Below the pieces are notes generated by a model. That model saw nothing but the letters and a program-made list of their open reading frames with translations, had not been told where the DNA came from and did not search any database. A DNA stretch of 64,000 nucleotides. It comes from a virus. Lineage: Duplodnaviria > Caudoviricetes. The DNA lies in the IMG/VR virus record IMGVR_UViG_2609460327_000001, positions 128,001 through 192,000 of that record, one strand, 5' to 3'. The translations under genes and the position numbers were made by a program. Below, in pieces: positions 11,546 to 61,537 of the stretch (position 1 is the first letter of the stretch; every line of letters starts with the position of its first letter).

Positions 11546-12991
11546 GTGGATTATACATTGGATATCGATGGCGTCCTTTTCGCGAGCAATAAGCCATTCT
11601 CTGCGACCCTCGCCGTACTGGAAGACCTCCAGGATGACAACGTGTTTACGGAAGAACGAGACTACGCCTCGTTCGAGAAGACCCCGCTTCAGTACCAGAT
11701 CACCTCAGAGACCGGAGACGATATTATCCAAGTCACAATTCCGTATTCCAATCGCCTGAGTGATTCAGATGCCGCACATGCCGTAGTTTGCTTCCATGAT
11801 GGTATCAGTAACTGGCGGCCGGTCAAGACCGACTGCGACCAAGATGGGCGCACTCTGCAAGCGACATTCGTGGGAAAAAAACTGACGATTGGCTTATTCC
11901 TTAACGAATATTTCTATTCAGAATATACACAGTACATGGCAGATGAGTTTCCTACATGGACAACGCTGCGCGGGAAAAAGTTCAGTCTTGGACAAAGATT
12001 TTTAAACTACTTCGGGATGCAGTTTGAACGAGGCATGGGTGATCTTAAAGATATCCGCCGCCAGCGATTCATCGACACGCTTGACCCGAACATGATGGAC
12101 TGGGTTTATATCTATCCAATCCCTAAGATTTCATCTACAGACAGTCTAACGATTTATGATCAAGAAAATGCTGACCTTCGTAAGCCGGTTCCCATCTTAA
12201 GCTCACTAAAAGAGTTCTTTTATAACATGGAGCAGAAGGGCGTCATTATTGATTACGAGTCTCGAGTCATGTACTCCATTCGTCGATATGAAACCATTCT
12301 AGGTGTAGTCGAGAATATTGATAACCGGCAGGGCTTCCGATCAACACCGACACCTCATTTAATCTGGAATGCCTTTGATGAGTTCGGGCTTTTAGTCGGC
12401 GTGAAGCGCCTGACGCTTGAGCGGAATGCAGAGTATCGTGAGCGCATCAAAGATGCTTTCCGTTACCCGGCAAACAACAGTGAGCTGGGGCTAACCCATG
12501 CACTCGGCCGCGAGCTTGGCTTAATCCGGAGATTCGTGTGGAAAGACGATACGAAGAACTTGTACATCAAAGGCAGCGGACTAGACCACCGCACGATCCG
12601 TGTGGATGGCCAGAAGATTGAACCTAACATGTACGCAGTAGATCGGTTCGGCAACATCATGATTCAGGCTTTCCGTGAAGGAAAAGAGCATACCGTCTCC
12701 ATCATCAAAGATGTCTTCAAGCATCAGCTGTACGATAAACAGGATGAAGAATTGTACAAAATGATGTTCGGTGAAGATGGGCAAGCCACAGACAAGCTAA
12801 TCAATTGGGTGAATTACATCAACGAAGTAGCTCCTGTGATGTGGGGGAAATTCAATTGGGATGAAGGATACTGGGATACGATCAGCAGAGACCTGACGGG
12901 GATCGGGTATCTTCCAAACATTTGGGATTCAGATATCAAGGTCTGGGACGATTACACATTCAGACTAGATCTAGCGAAGGAGAAGTTTTAA
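11546..12991 (+). CDS. putative baseplate wedge-like structural protein
   Basis: FDEFGLLVGVKRLTLERNAEYRERI resembles the LDxxGxxxGxxRxxxExDxxYRxRI motif of myovirus baseplate wedge proteins. Confidence 0.55.
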   Translation: MDYTLDIDGVLFASNKPFSATLAVLEDLQDDNVFTEERDYASFEKTPLQYQITSETGDDIIQVTIPYSNRLSDSDAAHAVVCFHDGISNWRPVKTDCDQDGRTLQATFVGKKLTIGLFLNEYFYSEYTQYMADEFPTWTTLRGKKFSLGQRFLNYFGMQFERGMGDLKDIRRQRFIDTLDPNMMDWVYIYPIPKISSTDSLTIYDQENADLRKPVPILSSLKEFFYNMEQKGVIIDYESRVMYSIRRYETILGVVENIDNRQGFRSTPTPHLIWNAFDEFGLLVGVKRLTLERNAEYRERIKDAFRYPANNSELGLTHALGRELGLIRRFVWKDDTKNLYIKGSGLDHRTIRVDGQKIEPNMYAVDRFGNIMIQAFREGKEHTVSIIKDVFKHQLYDKQDEELYKMMFGEDGQATDKLINWVNYINEVAPVMWGKFNWDEGYWDTISRDLTGIGYLPNIWDSDIKVWDDYTFRLDLAKEKF

Positions 12992-43786: not shown

Positions 43787-44275
43787 ATGAGTCGCTTTGA
43801 GCTCGGAAAAACACTTAGCTTAGATAATATGGCTTCTTCATCAACTGCAGTATGGGCAACAATAGGTGGAGTTTTCGGGTCAATCGTAGAAACCGTATAC
43901 GGCGGCGGAGAAGAGCGGAAGTTTATGATTGCCATCTATGCATTCTTTATCTTTATGGACTGGATCAGTGGGATCGCCGCTTCCAAGAAAGATGGAAGTT
44001 ATTCTTCCGAATATGGTATCAATGGCGTACTGAGGACTTTATTCATACTTTGTTTTCCGGCAGCAGCCAACATGCTTGACTATGTATTAAACACGCCAGG
44101 CGTTATCTTCTATTTTGTAACGACGGGCTTGATCTTCCACACCTTCAACAGCTTAACGGCTAACTCTGTACGAGCTGGATGGGAGAAGTGGATTCCAAAC
44201 AGCATCATTAACTTTGTTCAATCTGAGATTGAAAATAAATCTAATCGATCTTCCAAAAATACGGAAGAGAAATAG
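43787..44275 (+). CDS. phage holin (Phage_holin_4 / toxin-secretion holin family)
   Basis: Several TM segments; MDWISGIAAS...SSEYGINGVLR motif; charged C-terminus; ATG 43787 after GAGGTG. Confidence 0.75.
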   Translation: MSRFELGKTLSLDNMASSSTAVWATIGGVFGSIVETVYGGGEERKFMIAIYAFFIFMDWISGIAASKKDGSYSSEYGINGVLRTLFILCFPAAANMLDYVLNTPGVIFYFVTTGLIFHTFNSLTANSVRAGWEKWIPNSIINFVQSEIENKSNRSSKNTEEK

Positions 44276-44582: not shown

Positions 44583-44616
44583 AGCGCAAGATATCTCTCG
44601 ATATCTTGCGTTTTTT
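44583..44616 (+). terminator. strong Rho-independent terminator ending the structural/lysis operon
   Basis: GCGCAAGATATC-TCTC-GATATCTTGCGT followed by TTTTT. Confidence 0.85.
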
Positions 44617-44627
44617 CAATTTTTCTC

Positions 44628-44678
44628 TTGATTCCTAAAATTCAGCGTGCTATCATACAAATGTAACGCATTACATTT
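44628..44678 (+). promoter_or_regulatory. sigmaA-type promoter with operator over the start site
   Basis: TTGATT (44628-33), 17 bp spacer with TG extension, TATCAT (44651-56); palindrome AAATGTAACGCATTACATTT at 44659-44678. Confidence 0.75.
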
Positions 44679-45945: not shown

Positions 45946-46631
45946 TGAATCGAGATGGGTTGATTTATCAGCTCTCAGGATGGTTCGTATGCACGATAGT
46001 CGGTATTCCGATACAGAATGCCGACTCTCGTATCCGGACTAACATATCATCTATTCAGAAATTAGTTAAGGATGGATGGGAGCTGGAAGAGATTCAAGCA
46101 GAGATCGAGAAGTTTGCCCAAGATTACCCGGATATGGTCAAACGAATTTATATGCTTGAAGAGATTTTCGCCACAAAGAAACCACCGAAGAATATCATGA
46201 ATCCGGATATCTTCTACTATCACAACCGGCTGAGGGAAACTTCTCCTGCGCCTAAGATGCGTAAAGGACCGGACGGCAAATATATTCAAGAAGTGGAGCC
46301 GTTCTTCTTGGAGATGAAGAAACGCTTTACGATGGAAGAACTGCTTGAGTACTGGTATGAAAAGATGAACATTCAGAGCAATCCTCATATGATTAAGCAG
46401 GATGAAGGAAAATTTAATTACTTACTCGGCATCTATGATCTGGACGAAATCCTGTTTGCCATCGATGAAGCAAAGCGCATTCGCTTAAGCTGGCAACGGA
46501 GCCTTCTTCGAAACGCTTTTGATATTGAGAAATATGTAGATGAAGCTAGAGAGACGATATCACAAAAGAAGAATATTCATCAGATACATGGGATTAACCG
46601 AGTGATTCGAAAACAGGTGATCGCACAGTGA
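45945..46631 (+). CDS. hypothetical replication-module protein (228 aa)
   Basis: TAATG/GTGA coupled between recombinase and primase. Confidence 0.6.
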   Translation: MNRDGLIYQLSGWFVCTIVGIPIQNADSRIRTNISSIQKLVKDGWELEEIQAEIEKFAQDYPDMVKRIYMLEEIFATKKPPKNIMNPDIFYYHNRLRETSPAPKMRKGPDGKYIQEVEPFFLEMKKRFTMEELLEYWYEKMNIQSNPHMIKQDEGKFNYLLGIYDLDEILFAIDEAKRIRLSWQRSLLRNAFDIEKYVDEARETISQKKNIHQIHGINRVIRKQVIAQ

Positions 46632-47725
46632 ATGAGTTCCAGCTTTTTGTGGAATGCGGAGCGGACACCAATTCGGAAAAGTTTCCATTTACACGAAAGC
46701 ATTATATGCATCCTTCCGAGACCATCAAGTTTCGGAATTACTACAACAACATAGGCGTCTATGAGACTGTAATGCAATACATTAACCCTGAGTTCTTTCA
46801 AAATGAAAAAGGGAAATGGGTATTGAATGCAAGGGATGCTCTGAAATGGGGCGATCTTTATCTGGACTTTGATAAGCCATTAGAGACAGAAGAGGATTAC
46901 ACCAAATTAAAGTATGACGTGCATATTGCCTTTCGTTATCTTAAGCATATTCTTTCAATCGAGCCTGATCAGATCAATGTATTTTATTCGGGACACAAAG
47001 GGATTCACTTGACTGTCAGCGGACATGTGCTTGGGCTAAATCCGCACGTATCCCTGAATCAAATCTACCGTGAGATTGCACTTGATATCGCGAAGTACAC
47101 ACTGTTTGGAACAATGGATACAGCAATATACGATGATAAGCGCATGTTTCGAATGGTCAACTCCTTCAATAAGAAGGGTGGTCATTATAAGATACCCATA
47201 ACGCAGCAGGAGCTTCGCACTTGTACACTAGAACAAATTAAGGAACTGGCAAAAGAACCGAGATTCCTTCAACCTGCTCCACTGGTAACATCAAATAGAG
47301 CTAAGTTATCCCTTGATCGGTACATCCAAAAATGGACCGAACGGAATATAAAAGCAAAGGAATACCAAGGGAAGATTCGCAAGCTAGAAACTCTGCCGCC
47401 ATGCATTCAGACCATGCTTGAGCGTACATTTAAAGAAACTGTGGACGAGCGTAATAACTCTGGGACTGCACTTGCCAGCTTCTATATGCAGCAAGGAATG
47501 GAACGAGATGAAGCAATGGCGCGGATGCTCATATGGGGCGAAGAGAACTGCATGCCTCGATTGAACAGAAGAGATATCGAAACTATTGTGAACTCAGTTT
47601 ATAACGGACAATACCGATACGGCTGTGAAGCTTTTGCTAGACTGAGCGGCGTATGCGATAAAGATAAATGTCCTCTCTTTAATAAAGAGTTGAATAAAAA
47701 AGCAGAGGAAGAGAAAAAGGCCTAA
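46628..47725 (+). CDS. archaeo-eukaryotic primase (AEP/Prim-Pol) with PriCT/PriL-like Cys-rich C-terminal domain
   Basis: Motif I DLYLDFD, motif II YSGHKGIH, motif III DTAIYDDKRMFR; C-terminal LPPCI...RNNSG..LA...YGC...C....CP. Confidence 0.8.
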   Translation: MNEFQLFVECGADTNSEKFPFTRKHYMHPSETIKFRNYYNNIGVYETVMQYINPEFFQNEKGKWVLNARDALKWGDLYLDFDKPLETEEDYTKLKYDVHIAFRYLKHILSIEPDQINVFYSGHKGIHLTVSGHVLGLNPHVSLNQIYREIALDIAKYTLFGTMDTAIYDDKRMFRMVNSFNKKGGHYKIPITQQELRTCTLEQIKELAKEPRFLQPAPLVTSNRAKLSLDRYIQKWTERNIKAKEYQGKIRKLETLPPCIQTMLERTFKETVDERNNSGTALASFYMQQGMERDEAMARMLIWGEENCMPRLNRRDIETIVNSVYNGQYRYGCEAFARLSGVCDKDKCPLFNKELNKKAEEEKKA

Positions 47726-47877
47726 GCGTCCCTTAGAGGGTTGTGTTTTTATACGCACCTTGTAAGGGGCAGCTTAGGACCCTGCTCGAACCTCAACTTC
47801 ACCCAACACACAACACACAGGGATCTCTCCCTGTGTAATGCTTACGAACACTCGCAGGTATTACACGGGAGAGAGAT
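47721..47877 (+). ncRNA. structured intergenic element (two long G-U-containing hairpins plus an alternative stem)
   Basis: Hairpin 47721-47778 and hairpin 47823-47877; competing perfect 9 bp stem 47815-47836. Function unknown. Confidence 0.5.
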
Positions 47878-47899
47878 AAGCCGTATGGAAGGAGCAGCT

Positions 47900-49003
47900 A
47901 TGAGCAATACACAGCCAGGACAATTTAGTTTTACGGACATCATGCATCAAGTTGAAAGACAAATGCAGCAAGATCCAAATGCATTCGGCTTTGAGCCCGA
48001 AATGAGAAAAAAGGTTATTGTTACAAATGTCGAGGGAATACTTGGTCGTCCGTTAAACAGAATCGAAGAAAAGATGCTCCGCAATATCATGAATATGGAT
48101 GCTCACTCATGGGCCAGAGGGAAAAACGGGGGATTAATTTCAGGGTTGCAATCATTCGATGACGCCTTTGAAGGCGGGGCTCAGCCTGGGCTTATCTTAT
48201 TTGCCGCTGCACCAAACGTCGGTAAATCCGCCTACATGCTTCAAGTATGTAAAGGAATATCAGAGAGAAATGAAAAGGTCTATGTTTCGTATCATTCGCT
48301 TGATGATGCCAATAACGATCTTATGCCGCGCTATATTGCCAACGATCAACAAATCACGATCGGCCAAGCAAAGTCGCCAGCTAAGTATGAAGACGATGAA
48401 GAGATTATCAATAAGCGTAATGAAGGAATCAAGAACCTGTATCGCAGAGTAGACCGCTTCGGCATGTTCGATTCCAATGATATGACCAGCGTTGAAGCCA
48501 TTGAAGAGCACATCAAGGATATTAAGATGACGATGCCTGAAGGCACTCGAATCGTAATTGCAATTGACTCCTTCAATGACTTGACAGTAGAGAGCAAGAC
48601 CTTCAGCAACAATGATGATAAGACGGCTCACGTATCTAAAACGATCAAAGGCTGGGCTACAAGATTTGATGTTGTCGTTATGTGTACAGCTCACTTGCGT
48701 AAAACGAACGGCAAGCGTCCGATAGAGGATGATCTGAAGGATACAATCACTCTTCGTTATGAAGCAACAATGGTCTGCCTTATGTACAACGAAGTCGGCA
48801 TCAAGGAAGAGAATGCTGAAATCTATTGGGTCGATGAAGATGAAGACTTGAAGATGCCTGTCGTGGAAGTGAAGTTCGCTAAGAATAAGCACGCATCCAT
48901 GAAGAGTACTAAGTTCTTTAATTTTATTCCCGATTACTCTCTGTTTATCCAAGCGGAAGATGAAGCTCAGCGCCGATTCGCCTCTAAGATTTATCAAAAC
49001 TAA
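47900..49003 (+). CDS. DnaB-like (SF4) replicative helicase, ATPase domain
   Basis: ATG 47900 after GGAAGGAG. Walker A AAPNVGKS, YHSLD, IAIDSF, TAHLRK, DLKDT, AKNK. Confidence 0.75.
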   Translation: MSNTQPGQFSFTDIMHQVERQMQQDPNAFGFEPEMRKKVIVTNVEGILGRPLNRIEEKMLRNIMNMDAHSWARGKNGGLISGLQSFDDAFEGGAQPGLILFAAAPNVGKSAYMLQVCKGISERNEKVYVSYHSLDDANNDLMPRYIANDQQITIGQAKSPAKYEDDEEIINKRNEGIKNLYRRVDRFGMFDSNDMTSVEAIEEHIKDIKMTMPEGTRIVIAIDSFNDLTVESKTFSNNDDKTAHVSKTIKGWATRFDVVVMCTAHLRKTNGKRPIEDDLKDTITLRYEATMVCLMYNEVGIKEENAEIYWVDEDEDLKMPVVEVKFAKNKHASMKSTKFFNFIPDYSLFIQAEDEAQRRFASKIYQN

Positions 49004-53509: not shown

Positions 53510-53815
53510 ATGAAATTCGGACATGCACTTGAGCTCTTAGAGAAAGAAGAAAAGTTAAGACGCGATTCTTGGGCACCTGGCAGCTTCATTGTAATGATGC
53601 CTTCTCTTTATCTGCCGCCTTTTAGTACAGCTAGTACATTTTTGAAGGTTAACGATCGCACAGCAAAACATATTGGTGTAAATACGCCTCTTAATTCGCA
53701 GCCGTATATCGCATTTTTTAATGGCGAAACGGATGAATGGCAGCCAGGCTGGCTTCCTGCTCAGGCGGATTTGTTTGCCTCAGACTGGTATGCAACCAAG
53801 CAAACGCCATATTAA
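53510..53815 (+). CDS. tad2: Thoeris anti-defence 2-like (DUF2829) nucleotide-sponge protein
   Basis: MKFGHALELL..LRRDSW...QPYIA...PGWLPAQADLFASDW matches the DUF2829/Tad2 pattern MxFxxALxxxKxGxxVxRxxW...WxxSQxDxLAxDW. Confidence 0.75.
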   Translation: MKFGHALELLEKEEKLRRDSWAPGSFIVMMPSLYLPPFSTASTFLKVNDRTAKHIGVNTPLNSQPYIAFFNGETDEWQPGWLPAQADLFASDWYATKQTPY

Positions 53816-60509: not shown

Positions 60510-60698
60510 ATGGCTTACGAAAATGCAATCCGCTGCCTCGAAGAACGGATCGGTGTATATCGCCGGATGAGAGATCGACATATGAGAACGAGCTATAACA
60601 TAAACACAAGGATTGGAGAAATGGAATCAGCAGTTCGCGTCCTTAAAACAGCTCAGAGTAGACAAGAAAAATTTGAGAAAGTCAGCCAGAAGCAATAG
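60510..60698 (+). CDS. small hypothetical protein
   Basis: RBS AGGAGG. Confidence 0.55.
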   Translation: MAYENAIRCLEERIGVYRRMRDRHMRTSYNINTRIGEMESAVRVLKTAQSRQEKFEKVSQKQ

Positions 60699-60714
60699 TC
60701 CAGGAGGACCGCCT

Positions 60715-60924
60715 GTGGAGTTAATGAAAAAGTATTATGAGCGCTGCGGCGTGATTAATGATCCGCCTAAGAAGCCAAGAGTAGTAGTAAGTGAGAAGGC
60801 TTTCAATTGCCTTCATGGCGGACAGGGATATGACTTAATAAGGGAAGCTGTTGAACTAGAAGTCGAAAGACGCATTCGGCTACAAGAAGCTCACTTAAAA
60901 GCGTTCAACTCGTTATTTAGATAG
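60715..60924 (+). CDS. small hypothetical protein with MELMKKY leader
   Basis: GTG 60715 with RBS AGGAGG at 60702-07. Confidence 0.6.
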   Translation: MELMKKYYERCGVINDPPKKPRVVVSEKAFNCLHGGQGYDLIREAVELEVERRIRLQEAHLKAFNSLFR

Positions 60925-61272: not shown

Positions 61273-61537
61273 CAACATGGGAGTCAGTAATATGGTTTCT
61301 GAAATCGCAAATGAAACGTTAAGAGATATGCAATATCTTATGCTGACTCCCGAAAACCTACAGATCATGGGCAAAGAGATATCAAAGAGGGCAGCAGGAA
61401 GGTTGTCTGGTCTTATGGATGACAAGCTTTACTTCGATGTTATGGTTGTATTGGGTCAAAACAATAGCGCGAATTTAATATGGGATATTCGGGATTGGGA
61501 AGGCAGAGCTGTAGAGGTAGAAAGGTTGATACCATGA
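61232..61537 (+). CDS. hypothetical protein with MELFRPY leader
   Basis: GTG with RBS GAGGGGG; overlaps the previous gene by 41 nt. Confidence 0.55.
   Translation: MELFRPYLKRHVYDNMGVSNMVSEIANETLRDMQYLMLTPENLQIMGKEISKRAAGRLSGLMDDKLYFDVMVVLGQNNSANLIWDIRDWEGRAVEVERLIP

Follow-up and report, generated by a model that had tools for sequence, protein, structure and literature searches.

Between the genes for an AEP-type primase and a DnaB_C-type replicative helicase in a 206-kb Paenibacillus phage-plasmid (genome 206,307 bp) lies a folded spacer of 174 nt, and the question raised by this locus is what such a stretch does at this position. A preliminary description had proposed a cis-regulatory RNA switch for helicase expression, a small RNA, or a single-strand origin or primase assembly site. 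On a crude ORF map, only one gap in the window (the whole 64,000-nucleotide stretch of DNA that was analyzed) is longer, that of 207 nt at position 61273, in agreement with the earlier placing of the spacer among the longest intergenic gaps. A blastn search of the region against phage records gave no match, and 85 homologues of the helicase were found. The coordinates of the features are collected in Table 1. In the window, primase and helicase are in one frame with a single TAA between them, and the spacer is otherwise open. A primase-helicase fusion arising from readthrough or bypass of the stop codon was rejected: in L001, a TAG is found in frame 4 codons farther on, and the open frame was treated as chance.

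Table 1. Features of the primase-helicase spacer and its flanking genes
Feature	Position	Strand	Evidence and details
Upstream cistron, AEP-type primase (PriCT_1)	46628..47725	+	Pfam PriCT_1, E 1.2e-7; same CDS on NZ_CP118109.1
Hairpin 1 (segments 1:2)	47719..47781	+	MFE; 26 pairs, -38.3 kcal/mol alone; covariation
Alternative hairpin 2:3	47767..47787	+	GGGCAG 47767-72, 9-nt loop, CTGCTC 47782-87; shares the 3' arm of hairpin 1
Linker, C/A-rich, G-poor	47782..47814	+	2 G in 33 nt; aligned YCYTCC (anti-SD-like) motif, A2 columns 101-106
Alternative hairpin A:B	A 47815-23, B 47828-36	+	loop TCTC; 0/1000 shuffles as low; inverted-repeat I5
Hairpin 2 (B:C)	47823..47877	+	MFE; 24 pairs; 5' arm includes B; covariation
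Helicase translation start region	47885..47902	+	SD GGAAGGAG 47887-94, ATG 47900-02; CDS start as in annotated plasmid record
Downstream cistron, DnaB_C-type replicative helicase	47900..49003	+	367 aa; Pfam DnaB_C, E 4.8e-23

The Two Long Hairpins of the Spacer

On the + strand, the region 47719-47877 is predicted to fold into two long hairpins, designated 1:2 (hairpin 1) and B:C (hairpin 2), with an MFE of -85.2 kcal/mol and a z-score of -7.93; none of 200 shuffled sequences folded as well. The - strand of the same region gives -72.8 kcal/mol (z -4.81). At -0.443 kcal/mol per nt, the spacer ranks first in structure among the 61 gaps of 70-400 nt in the genome, for which both strands were folded, and no comparable twin hairpins are present in any of the others. 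All of the stems that had been assigned to the two hairpins are present in the sequence, and the accompanying details of the preliminary description also stand: the primase stop codon (TAA, 47723-47725) is buried within the 5' arm of hairpin 1, the linker is C/A-rich and nearly free of G (Table 1), and hairpin 2, whose 3' arm C terminates in GGGAGAGAGAT (47867-77), ends 9 nt before the helicase SD, where about 10 nt had been given. Neither hairpin has a U-tail, as had been noted; the bases 3' of hairpin 1 are ACCCTG and those 3' of hairpin 2 are AAGCCG, and no terminator-like site was found on the + strand within 47700-47900. An extra in-frame ATG is located at 47885-87, 8 nt past hairpin 2.

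The helicase SD is not predicted to be sequestered by these structures. Its predicted unpaired probability of 0.456 is average among the 44 genes in the window, 25 of which are less accessible. The region from -40 to -18 of the helicase gene, which corresponds to the standby region, is the fifth least accessible of the 44 (predicted value 0.225), and low standby accessibility is common to four other genes in the window.

Competing Stems and Their Conservation among Relatives

Of 31 related helicase loci, 14 have the element; these 14 fall in a single 22-row clade, and the minimum history of the element on the helicase tree comprises one gain and two losses. The carriers are large phage-plasmids of Paenibacillus, Bacillus, and Alicyclobacillus, with one copy per genome. 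The element is missing from the 8-row outgroup, among whose members are phage 0305phi8-36 and a 235-kb B. thuringiensis plasmid. It is lacking in 17 of the 31 relatives, which have the same primase-helicase pair. The 14 leaders comprise two groups: (i) 10 contain the full element, and (ii) four, L010, L012, L003, and L002, are core-only and lack the linker entirely. The 3' end of hairpin 2 is 14-37 nt from the helicase start codon in all 14, and in L002, L003, L012, L016, and L046 the gene upstream of the element is not a primase. The position of the element is linked to the helicase start, not to the primase. A model (R1) trained on 10 leaders matches, on the + strand, only those 10 and an identical plasmid copy (L042). 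Further copies were sought in IMG/VR by DNA pattern and discounted, the four matches being the known L007 record and three that are apparently due to chance, in unrelated sequence.

In nine of the 10 full elements, the upstream stop codon is located between 4 nt inside and 12 nt before hairpin 1, the exception being L043 (22 nt). In a compact genome, a stop codon next to the first stem would be expected in any case. The number of pairs in hairpin 1 is 19-28 in nine of the 10 full leaders; in L008, this hairpin is branched. Hairpin 2 forms a stem without branches (19-40 pairs) in 10 of the 14 leaders; its basal stem is kept, and its apical part varies from 4 to ~70 nt. The linker of the relatives is ~30-45 nt long and pyrimidine-rich, being U/A-rich rather than C-rich in the Bacillus lineages, and its YCYTCC motif is conserved in the alignment together with an unpaired GCATA 3' of hairpin 1.

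Comparison of homologous spacers, which the preliminary description had suggested, showed that both long hairpins covary. The sample consists of 10-14 leaders (12 distinct) from about seven lineages. Compensatory changes were identified by RNAalifold in 18 of 26 pairs. The hairpin 1 helix (columns 24-35/68-79, 10 leaders) is 87% paired, with double changes in 7 of 11 pairs, and that of hairpin 2 (columns 145-151/224-230) is 88.6% paired. Hairpin 1 and B:C taken together have 83.8% of cells paired and a score of 0.450, as compared with 0.255 for shuffled controls (0/500) and no more than 0.23 for slid controls. Wobble G-U pairs outnumber A-C mismatches by 20 cells to 6 in 21 covarying pairs, in line with the earlier suggestion that the many G-U pairs point to RNA-level structure on the + strand. 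In 10 of the 12 leaders compared, the + strand fold is also the more stable of the two.

Each of the long hairpins has a shorter competitor that reuses one of its arms. A:B is a perfect 9-bp stem, ACACAGGGA/TCCCTGTGT, that overlaps hairpin 2 over 47823-47836 and can be extended to 11 pairs across 47811-47840 (-14.7 kcal/mol). The mutual exclusion of this stem and hairpin 2, of which B is the 5' arm, had been pointed out for the window; an equivalent is present in 14 of 14 leaders with differing sequences. At least nine different arm sequences form A:B stems of 7-16 pairs, for which 0-12 of 1000 shuffles are as low, and the proportion of B bases that also pair with C ranges from 6/9 to 17/17. 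The second competitor, 2:3, shares alignment columns 77-79 with 1:2. Its aligned helix is 88.6% paired and has a score of 0.663, as compared with 0.336 for shuffled (0/500) and no more than 0.24 for slid controls. Relative to shuffled linkers, 2:3 is no better in the window (594/1000 as low), L001 (301), L008 (259), or L011 (257). Column 78 illustrates the use of two partners: pair 25/78 is UA in six leaders and CG in four, and pair 78/98 is AU in four and GC in four. Each alternative hairpin is built on an arm taken from one of the long hairpins, and arm 2 and arm B therefore both show covariation with two partners. The MAFFT alignment of the A:B hairpins (A4) was excluded from the column counts because it was structurally inconsistent.

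Other pairings fared less well. The proposed pairing of the linker with hairpin 1 corresponds to a real complementarity (GTTGTGTTTT/AACACACAAC, 47740-49/47805-14, 90% complementary, inverted-repeat I4) but is treated as unsupported because the apical sequence of hairpin 1 is different in L001. Pairing of B with the first helicase codons (47831-42/47903-14) is strong in the window, where it reaches -18.7 kcal/mol and none of 16 background windows is as low, but is not so in L001 (11/16) or in the majority of the other leaders, and it was discarded. In several relatives, B matches the SD instead of the first helicase codons. A kissing interaction of the conserved 2:3 loop with the coding sequence for the GVCD motif of the primase was also discarded, with complements of at least 6 nt being inconsistent and L044 and L045 having none.

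The balance between A:B and B:C varies among the leaders. B:C is favored by 14.5 kcal/mol in the window; the range extends from B:C by 15.7 kcal/mol in L011 to A:B by 8.6 kcal/mol in L043. In MFE folds of successively longer prefixes, which reflect thermodynamics only, A:B predominates in 10 of 11 leaders until C appears, and the switch to B:C takes place 22-99 nt after B; L043 is the exception and stays A:B. Masking of the stop-codon region, which mimics a ribosome, brings 2:3 into the MFE structure of the window. In 12 of 13 leaders, masking of the upstream stop raised neither the equilibrium P(A:B) nor the standby accessibility, a rise being seen only in L010; it follows that there is no thermodynamic coupling between the two toggles. 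Masking of the upstream stop, of A, or of B produced no consistent change in the predicted SD accessibility across 14 leaders. A scheme in which the SD is occluded at equilibrium and a thermodynamic domino links both toggles was rejected as unsupported by the accessibility and masking folds.

Relation to Known Systems and Alternative Explanations

The Rfam search that had been suggested for the locus gave no family at its gathering threshold in the window or in 11 relatives. With Rfam 15, the segment 46500-49000 of the window had four matches with E <=10, the best with 18.7 bits against a threshold of 48, and the 11 relatives (65.8 kb) had five with E <=1, all to miRNA-precursor models and with no more than 35.3 bits against thresholds of 50-99. 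Riboswitches, T-box, ribozymes, leaders, and RF01691 were not found at threshold, and the matches were to generic miRNA/snoRNA hairpin models only. RF01691, the Bacillus-plasmid motif, is listed as a structured RNA for Bacillus (PMC2864571, Table 1); it and the leader are both structured RNAs on Bacillus extrachromosomal elements, but there is no covariance-model match between them.

Functional metastable hairpins that covary are documented for aapA3, hok, and MS2 in the passages of PMC6733600 that deal with these RNAs. There, as in the leader, one strand has two covarying partners, an early hairpin of the nascent chain is replaced by a stabler helix, and timing relative to transcription and translation is the point of the design; in these RNAs, the SD of a toxin or maturation gene is masked by the transient or the final helices, and the circuit is completed by processing or an antisense RNA (PMC6733600). 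The coupled covariation of one strand with two partners that is typical of hok and aapA3 is present in the leader. In contrast to these systems, the leader precedes a replicative helicase within an operon, its SD is predicted to be open in all states, no antisense partner was found, and there is no sequence homology. There is no pair of type I toxin gene and antisense RNA, the downstream gene being the DnaB_C helicase, and no consistent antisense promoter was found.

In ermC and cat attenuation, and in the R1 tap-repA and ColIb-P9 repY-repZ systems, expression is coupled to a leader peptide: a ribosome in the upstream frame covers segment 1, and either a sequestered SD (segment 4) is freed or an activating pseudoknot is formed. 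The leader resembles these in its 1:2/2:3 toggle and in preceding a replication gene of an extrachromosomal element, and, judged by stop position only, a ribosome that ends the upstream frame would cover segment 1 in nine of the 10 full elements. It differs in that the place of the leader peptide is taken by the end of a full-length gene and that a second toggle, A:B/B:C, lies between. An SD or start codon that is paired and then released was not found in the unpaired probability of the window or in the masking of 14 leaders given above. Mutually exclusive helices that share a strand, as in attenuators, are present both as A:B and B:C (14/14) and as 1:2 and 2:3; the U-run of intrinsic-terminator attenuators (trp, pT181, T-box type) is lacking on the + strand of 47700-47900.

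The R sites of T7 and their counterparts in SP82 are RNase III processing hairpins between phage cistrons in early transcripts. Like them, the leader lies between cistrons of a large phage operon and has duplexes of ~20 bp or longer without U-tails (26 and 24 predicted pairs in the window). It could be a processing or stability module, rather unlikely as this appears to us, in which duplexes of at least 19 bp are targets of RNase III or another RNase, or barriers to decay; such a module would separate the primase message from that of the helicase and determine the half-life of each, and the alternative stems would only guide folding. The lengths of both hairpins in the relatives and the free apex of hairpin 2 above a kept basal stem are consistent with this explanation, and an SD that is predicted to be accessible fits a role other than SD occlusion. 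However, processing leaves unexplained both the retention of A:B in 14 of 14 leaders and the constant proximity of the end of C to the start codon. The twin hairpins also occupy a single site in the genome, unlike the recurring T7 sites, and have conserved competing stems.

An operator, at which a trans-acting factor chooses the fold, is improbable. The factor could be an RNA-binding protein, as in autoregulation by the helicase or primase, or an antisense RNA. The widely differing A:B/B:C equilibrium would suit an external selector, and the conserved GCATA and YCYTCC also speak for an operator. With regard to an antisense RNA, A:B is terminator-like on the - strand in the window and L012 only, and in L003 and in L016/L046 a promoter-like site scoring 9/12 points leftwards from the 5' end of the helicase gene. 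However, - strand promoter-like matches of at least 8/12 are present in only 8 of 14 leaders, close to the background rate of 0-1.9 per window, and none reaches 9/12 in the window; an antisense promoter thus gains no support from enrichment over background in the 14 leaders. The - strand tails after A:B are inconsistently U-rich. The conserved multi-helix junction expected for a ligand pocket is absent, as is any Rfam match.

Known single-strand initiation signals take the form of strand-specific hairpins, and the spacer might act as DNA, its hairpins extruding on the single-stranded + strand to form a priming site, a helicase-loading site, or part of an origin. The location between primase and helicase and the stable fold of the - strand would be compatible with such a signal, which is nevertheless quite improbable. 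A fixed distance to the helicase start, kept even where no primase is adjacent, is expected of an expression signal and not of an origin, and the 17 relatives that lack the element have the same gene pair. At the spacer, there are no iterons or initiator boxes (the sole direct repeat found is an 8-mer in a coding region), no AT-rich unwinding element (G+C is 51% as compared with 43% for the genome), and no skew switch, the cumulative GC-skew minimum of the genome being at 62-66 kb with no skew change at 175.8 kb.

Control at the level of transcription, in which no intrinsic terminator takes part, is very improbable. The linker would be a Rho loading site, exposed in 1:2 and hidden in 2:3, so that helicase transcription would depend on translation of the upstream gene, a logic that resembles that of tna; alternatively, the hairpins would modify RNA polymerase. 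The base composition of the linker, its pyrimidine-rich counterparts in relatives, the sequestration of its 5' part by 2:3, and the stop codon abutting arm 1 would all suit Rho, but the linker is short, is not C-rich in the Bacillus lineages, and is missing from the four core-only leaders. Finally, a small RNA gene in its own right, or a selfish hairpin that has no part in helicase expression, is scarcely credible: only the weak matches to generic long-hairpin (miRNA-precursor) models speak for it, and the element has neither an upstream promoter-like site nor a + strand terminator, is present once per genome, is fixed in position and orientation relative to the helicase start in 14 leaders, and has a distribution that tracks the helicase tree.

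A Possible Role in Helicase Expression

The conserved folded stretch probably acts in RNA, where it would tune helicase production. Among the three readings in the preliminary description, the cis-regulatory switch for helicase expression gives the best fit, through the conserved exclusive stem with its compensatory changes, the excess of wobble pairs, and the linkage to the helicase, although the SD is not predicted to be sequestered; the small RNA and the single-strand origin lack support, with no promoter/terminator pair, iterons, skew switch, or second copy having been found. With a likelihood that we place somewhat below even, the spacer may be a cis-acting 5' leader RNA of the helicase in which a programmed folding pathway serves as a gate for translation.

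The two long hairpins (1:2 and B:C) and the two alternatives (2:3 and A:B) would encode this pathway. A:B would form first on the nascent transcript and be displaced by B:C only once C has been transcribed, 22-99 nt later. Because the stop codon is in or next to arm 1, 2:3 would be possible only while the ribosome that is ending the upstream gene covers this arm. In the transient state, the purine-rich C strand would be single-stranded; in the stable end state, a long duplex would lie 14-37 nt from the start codon, within the 30S landing (standby) surface. The leader would thus favor initiation of helicase synthesis on fresh mRNA that is being co-translated and reduce it once the mRNA is mature, and helicase output would be uncoupled from the tight stop-start coupling of relatives without the element.

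We know of no natural switch with this architecture in the work on standby sites. The proposed states resemble those in the standby-site experiments of PMC3936740 in having a large hairpin that abuts the ribosome landing region and a single-stranded, purine-rich alternative; the part of that study bearing on this point used synthetic 5' UTRs in E. coli, and structured standby sites there can shift initiation >100-fold (PMC3936740). A more specific version of the folding-pathway leader, in which it is a relay timed by both ribosome and polymerase, and the helicase is made mainly for a brief period on nascent co-translated mRNA in the manner of the MS2 maturation gene, is distinctly unlikely. 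If true, such a relay would set how much helicase is made per transcript, or the proportion of primase to helicase, and through this replication or copy number.

Should the element be merely a pair of processing hairpins, it would be an ordinary one. With no Rfam match, and with literature searches that did not surface such an element, the leader is a candidate for a new family of cis-acting structured RNAs, and it is an example from nature of coupled covariation, in which a single strand covaries with two partners; this occurs twice within 180 nt. If it sets the dosage of the helicase, it would be a control point for the replication of 200-kb elements.

Structure and setting of the primase-helicase spacer

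The spacer between the gene for an AEP primase with a PriCT_1 domain and the downstream gene for a DnaB_C-type helicase folds on the + strand (47715-47905) into two long hairpins with a predicted energy of -85.2 kcal/mol (ViennaRNA). This fold has a z score of -7.93, with none of 200 dinucleotide shuffles as good (average -50.4 ± 4.4), and the opposite strand is weaker (-72.8, z -4.81). Among 61 gaps of 70-400 nt compared on both strands of the complete 206,307-bp record (window, 128001-192000), the spacer has the most structure per nucleotide (-0.443 kcal/mol/nt; runner-up, -0.382). Two gaps of -0.38 kcal/mol/nt on the - strand outside the window, at 60532-60891 and 64594-64893 of the whole genome (G000), flank a - strand gene of 1233 aa, and one of them has a 24-pair hairpin. 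All stems named in the preliminary description exist between the primase stop and the helicase start; the perfect 9-bp stem (47815-47823/47828-47836) and the other inverted repeats were recovered by an independent repeat search, and the reported lack of a U tail on either hairpin agrees with the absence of a terminator-like site from the + strand of the spacer.

Features of the leader and of the region 5' of its genes
Feature	Position in the window	Strand	Basis
13-pair terminator-like hairpin with T-run, followed directly by two overlapping promoter-like sites	44583-44656
Primase stop TAA	47723-47725	+	sequence
Hairpin 1 (segments 1:2), 26 pairs	47719-47781	+	ViennaRNA fold of 47715-47905
Alternative hairpin 2:3	47767-47787
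Alternative hairpin A:B	47815-47836
Hairpin 2 (strands B:C), 24 pairs	47823-47877	+	ViennaRNA fold of 47715-47905
Helicase start ATG	47900	+	sequence

Both genes lie within a long + strand gene run that appears to begin at the terminator-plus-promoter pair, which is likely the operon boundary 5' of the primase/helicase block. Further upstream, 12922-38513 holds very large + strand ORFs of 2810, 1723, and 1660 aa. Primase and helicase (46628-49003) share one reading frame, interrupted solely by the primase stop; the frame is otherwise open throughout the spacer, and an ORF at 47741-49003 is in the mechanical ORF list. The shared frame looks accidental because the related locus L001 has a second in-frame stop four codons further on.

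A 214,846-bp circular Paenibacillus urinalis plasmid has an identical helicase, an unannotated spacer, and phage genes (a holin) near the helicase locus. Helicase homologues occur on ~190-230-kb contigs, plasmids, and jumbo phages of Paenibacillus, Bacillus, Priestia, and Alicyclobacillus, with distant relatives at 33-36% identity in Bacillus phage 0305phi8-36 and a 235-kb B. thuringiensis plasmid. Therefore, given these large plasmids and jumbo phages and the phage genes nearby, the element belongs to a phage-plasmid-like jumbo replicon. By annotation of the near-identical plasmid, ORF 43787-44275 is a phage holin and a small ORF at 53510-53815 (11612-11917 in that copy, L042) is an MW1434-family type I toxin-antitoxin toxin.

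Distribution and covariation of the element

Helicase-homologue loci were gathered from IMG/VR, metagenomes, genome contigs, PLSDB, and phage records. Removal of same-record duplicates (L004=L001, L006=L002, L022=L015, L024=L011, L026=L012, L055=L007), partial loci (L027, L030), and matches at ≤ ~32% identity (L017-L021, L033-L040) left 31 helicase loci that comprise three groups. (i) The window, L001, L007, L008, L011, L043, L044, L045, L016, and L046 have the full element (10/31). (ii) L010, L012, L003, and L002 have only the 3' half, the A/B/C core (4/31). (iii) The other 17 have no element, and their helicase SD lies ~10-60 nt past the upstream stop. The 14 leaders (12 distinct) represent about seven lineages; some 50 further homologues were proteins only. 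In a maximum-likelihood helicase tree all 14 carriers fall within a single 22-row clade, and the element is missing from the outgroup of 8 rows and from two inner subclades, one of 6 rows and one of 2; its absence costs three changes on the tree, e.g. a single gain plus two losses. Every leader has the 3' end of hairpin 2 at 14-37 nt from the start of the helicase gene, and the element keeps its position in L002, L003, L012, L016, and L046, where a non-primase gene is directly upstream; its linkage is thus with the helicase gene and not with the primase. On the partial metagenome contig L027, whose helicase is a more distant relative (47% identity), the primase stop is followed by a hairpin-rich spacer of a different kind. 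In Alicyclobacillus L002, positions 2349-2405, directly 5' of the core element, hold a promoter-like TTGAAG-17-TATACT and a small T-run hairpin; there the core may begin its own transcript.

The Infernal search suggested in the preliminary description recovered no known family in Rfam 15 for the window spacer or 11 relatives, the sole matches being to miRNA-precursor, snoRNA, and EBV sisRNA models, all far below threshold. The spacer DNA is single-copy, and a covariance model built on hairpin 1 plus the linker matches the genome once and has no match elsewhere in 11 further records, including those with an element-less helicase. The literature searched, in searches not designed to prove absence, yielded no description of this leader.

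In a MAFFT alignment of the 10 full leaders, sequence homology runs through hairpin 1 and the linker, and 18 of 26 pairs predicted by RNAalifold have compensatory double changes. Covariation across homologous spacers is present: for hairpin 1 and the base of hairpin 2, 83.8% of 240 cells are paired, 13/24 pairs have double changes, and the score is 0.450 versus 0.255 for shuffled columns (0/500 as high), dropping to ≤0.23 with partners slid by 1-3 columns. These figures are conservative because the alignment places hairpin 1 of the window and L001 one column out of register. The + strand is the stabler in 10 of 12 distinct leaders, and the 21 locally paired columns contain 20 G-U versus 6 A-C cells, which are not independent. 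The G-U excess and the predicted strand stability lean toward a single-stranded + strand molecule; G-U pairs as a sign of + strand RNA, proposed earlier, are qualified by a - strand MFE that is likewise rich in them.

Alternative pairings

When each leader is truncated after the 5' arm of hairpin 2 and so lacks C, an A:B hairpin of 7-16 pairs is predicted in all 14, with at least nine clearly different arm sequences; when A and the loop are shuffled, an equally low energy is reached in 0-12 of 1000 trials. When A is omitted, between 6/9 and 17/17 of these B bases are paired to C. Since B pairs with A or C in each leader, its two-partner complementarity is kept family-wide, and the alternative to hairpin 2 pointed out from the window sequence is no accident of this genome. 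On the modeled folds, A:B is solid in the window. Its balance with B:C is not conserved and extends from a 15.7 kcal/mol preference for B:C (the window has 14.5) to a preference of 8.6 for A:B. The predicted folding order is kept: in 10/11 leaders the lengthening transcript folds best as A:B until C emerges; C appears 22-99 nt after B where A:B gives way. In the window, 12 nt of the 5' arm of hairpin 2 (47831-47842) also show 92% complementarity to helicase codons 2-5 (47903-47914; duplex, -18.7 kcal/mol), a match not conserved in L001.

Full elements have a second toggle, in which segment 2, the 3' arm of hairpin 1, is able to pair with segment 3, where the linker begins; the intervening loop measures 8-9 nt, or 14 nt in L011. 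This 2:3 helix is 88.6% paired on the alignment, with double changes in 6/7 pairs and a covariation score of 0.663 versus 0.336 shuffled (0/500 as high; ≤0.24 when slid); columns 77-79 are common to it and hairpin 1. Composition alone lets a G-rich arm pair readily with a C-rich linker, and 2:3 clearly beats shuffled linkers only in the Bacillus lineages (4-22 of 1000), is marginal in L007 (53), and is no better in the window (594), L001 (301), L008 (259), and L011 (257). In the window, support for 2:3 comes from the comparative signal. In 9/10 full elements the upstream stop falls between 4 nt inside hairpin 1 and 12 nt ahead of it, and with the stop-codon region masked the nascent window leader is predicted to take 2:3. 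Equilibrium coupling of the two toggles (A:B/B:C and 1:2/2:3) was not found in folding tests.

Helicase start region and role of the leader

The predicted probability that the helicase SD is unpaired is 0.456, and 25 of 44 window genes are less accessible. Across the 14 leaders, SD accessibility shifts inconsistently when A, B, or arm 1 (the last to mimic a terminating ribosome) is forced unpaired; a simple SD-occlusion switch is therefore unsupported. Positions -40 to -18 before the start are mostly paired in the final fold (0.225, fifth lowest of 44, the same stretch in other genes being ribosome-unwound coding sequence). By eye, most leaders have a second start-like codon (ATG or GTG) 0-10 nt past strand C (noted in the window, L001, L043, L016/L046, L011, L007, L012, L044/L045, and L003). 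In the window (47885-47902) and several relatives, this codon shares the frame of the annotated start and precedes it by 5-11 codons; in L044/L045 and L003 it opens a 4-5-codon mini-ORF whose end is at, or immediately 5' of, the helicase ATG. Strand C might act as the SD for this codon, with poor spacing in the window (about 12 nt).

The main rival reading is a processing or stability module of the RNase III type, which would be compatible with gating at a standby site; in most leaders the two stems are each longer than about 19 bp. Operator, Rho-dependent, origin, and small RNA readings rank lower. No iterons were found at the spacer, its G+C is above that of the genome, cumulative GC skew turns at 62-66 kb and not there, and - strand promoter-like sites near the helicase start are no commoner than background.

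The best-supported reading is that the spacer would act in cis as the RNA leader of the helicase cistron and would follow a programmed folding pathway. Systems for comparison are ermC, R1, ColIb-P9, the T7/SP82 RNase III sites, and tna. Covarying metastable hairpins acting during transcription are documented for aapA3, hok, and MS2 (PMC6733600), and structured standby sites can alter initiation more than 100-fold (PMC3936740). For the helicase leader we favor gating of 30S loading through the standby region, in which a transient open state timed by transcription and translation, with A:B formed and C free, would be followed by B:C as the closed end state.
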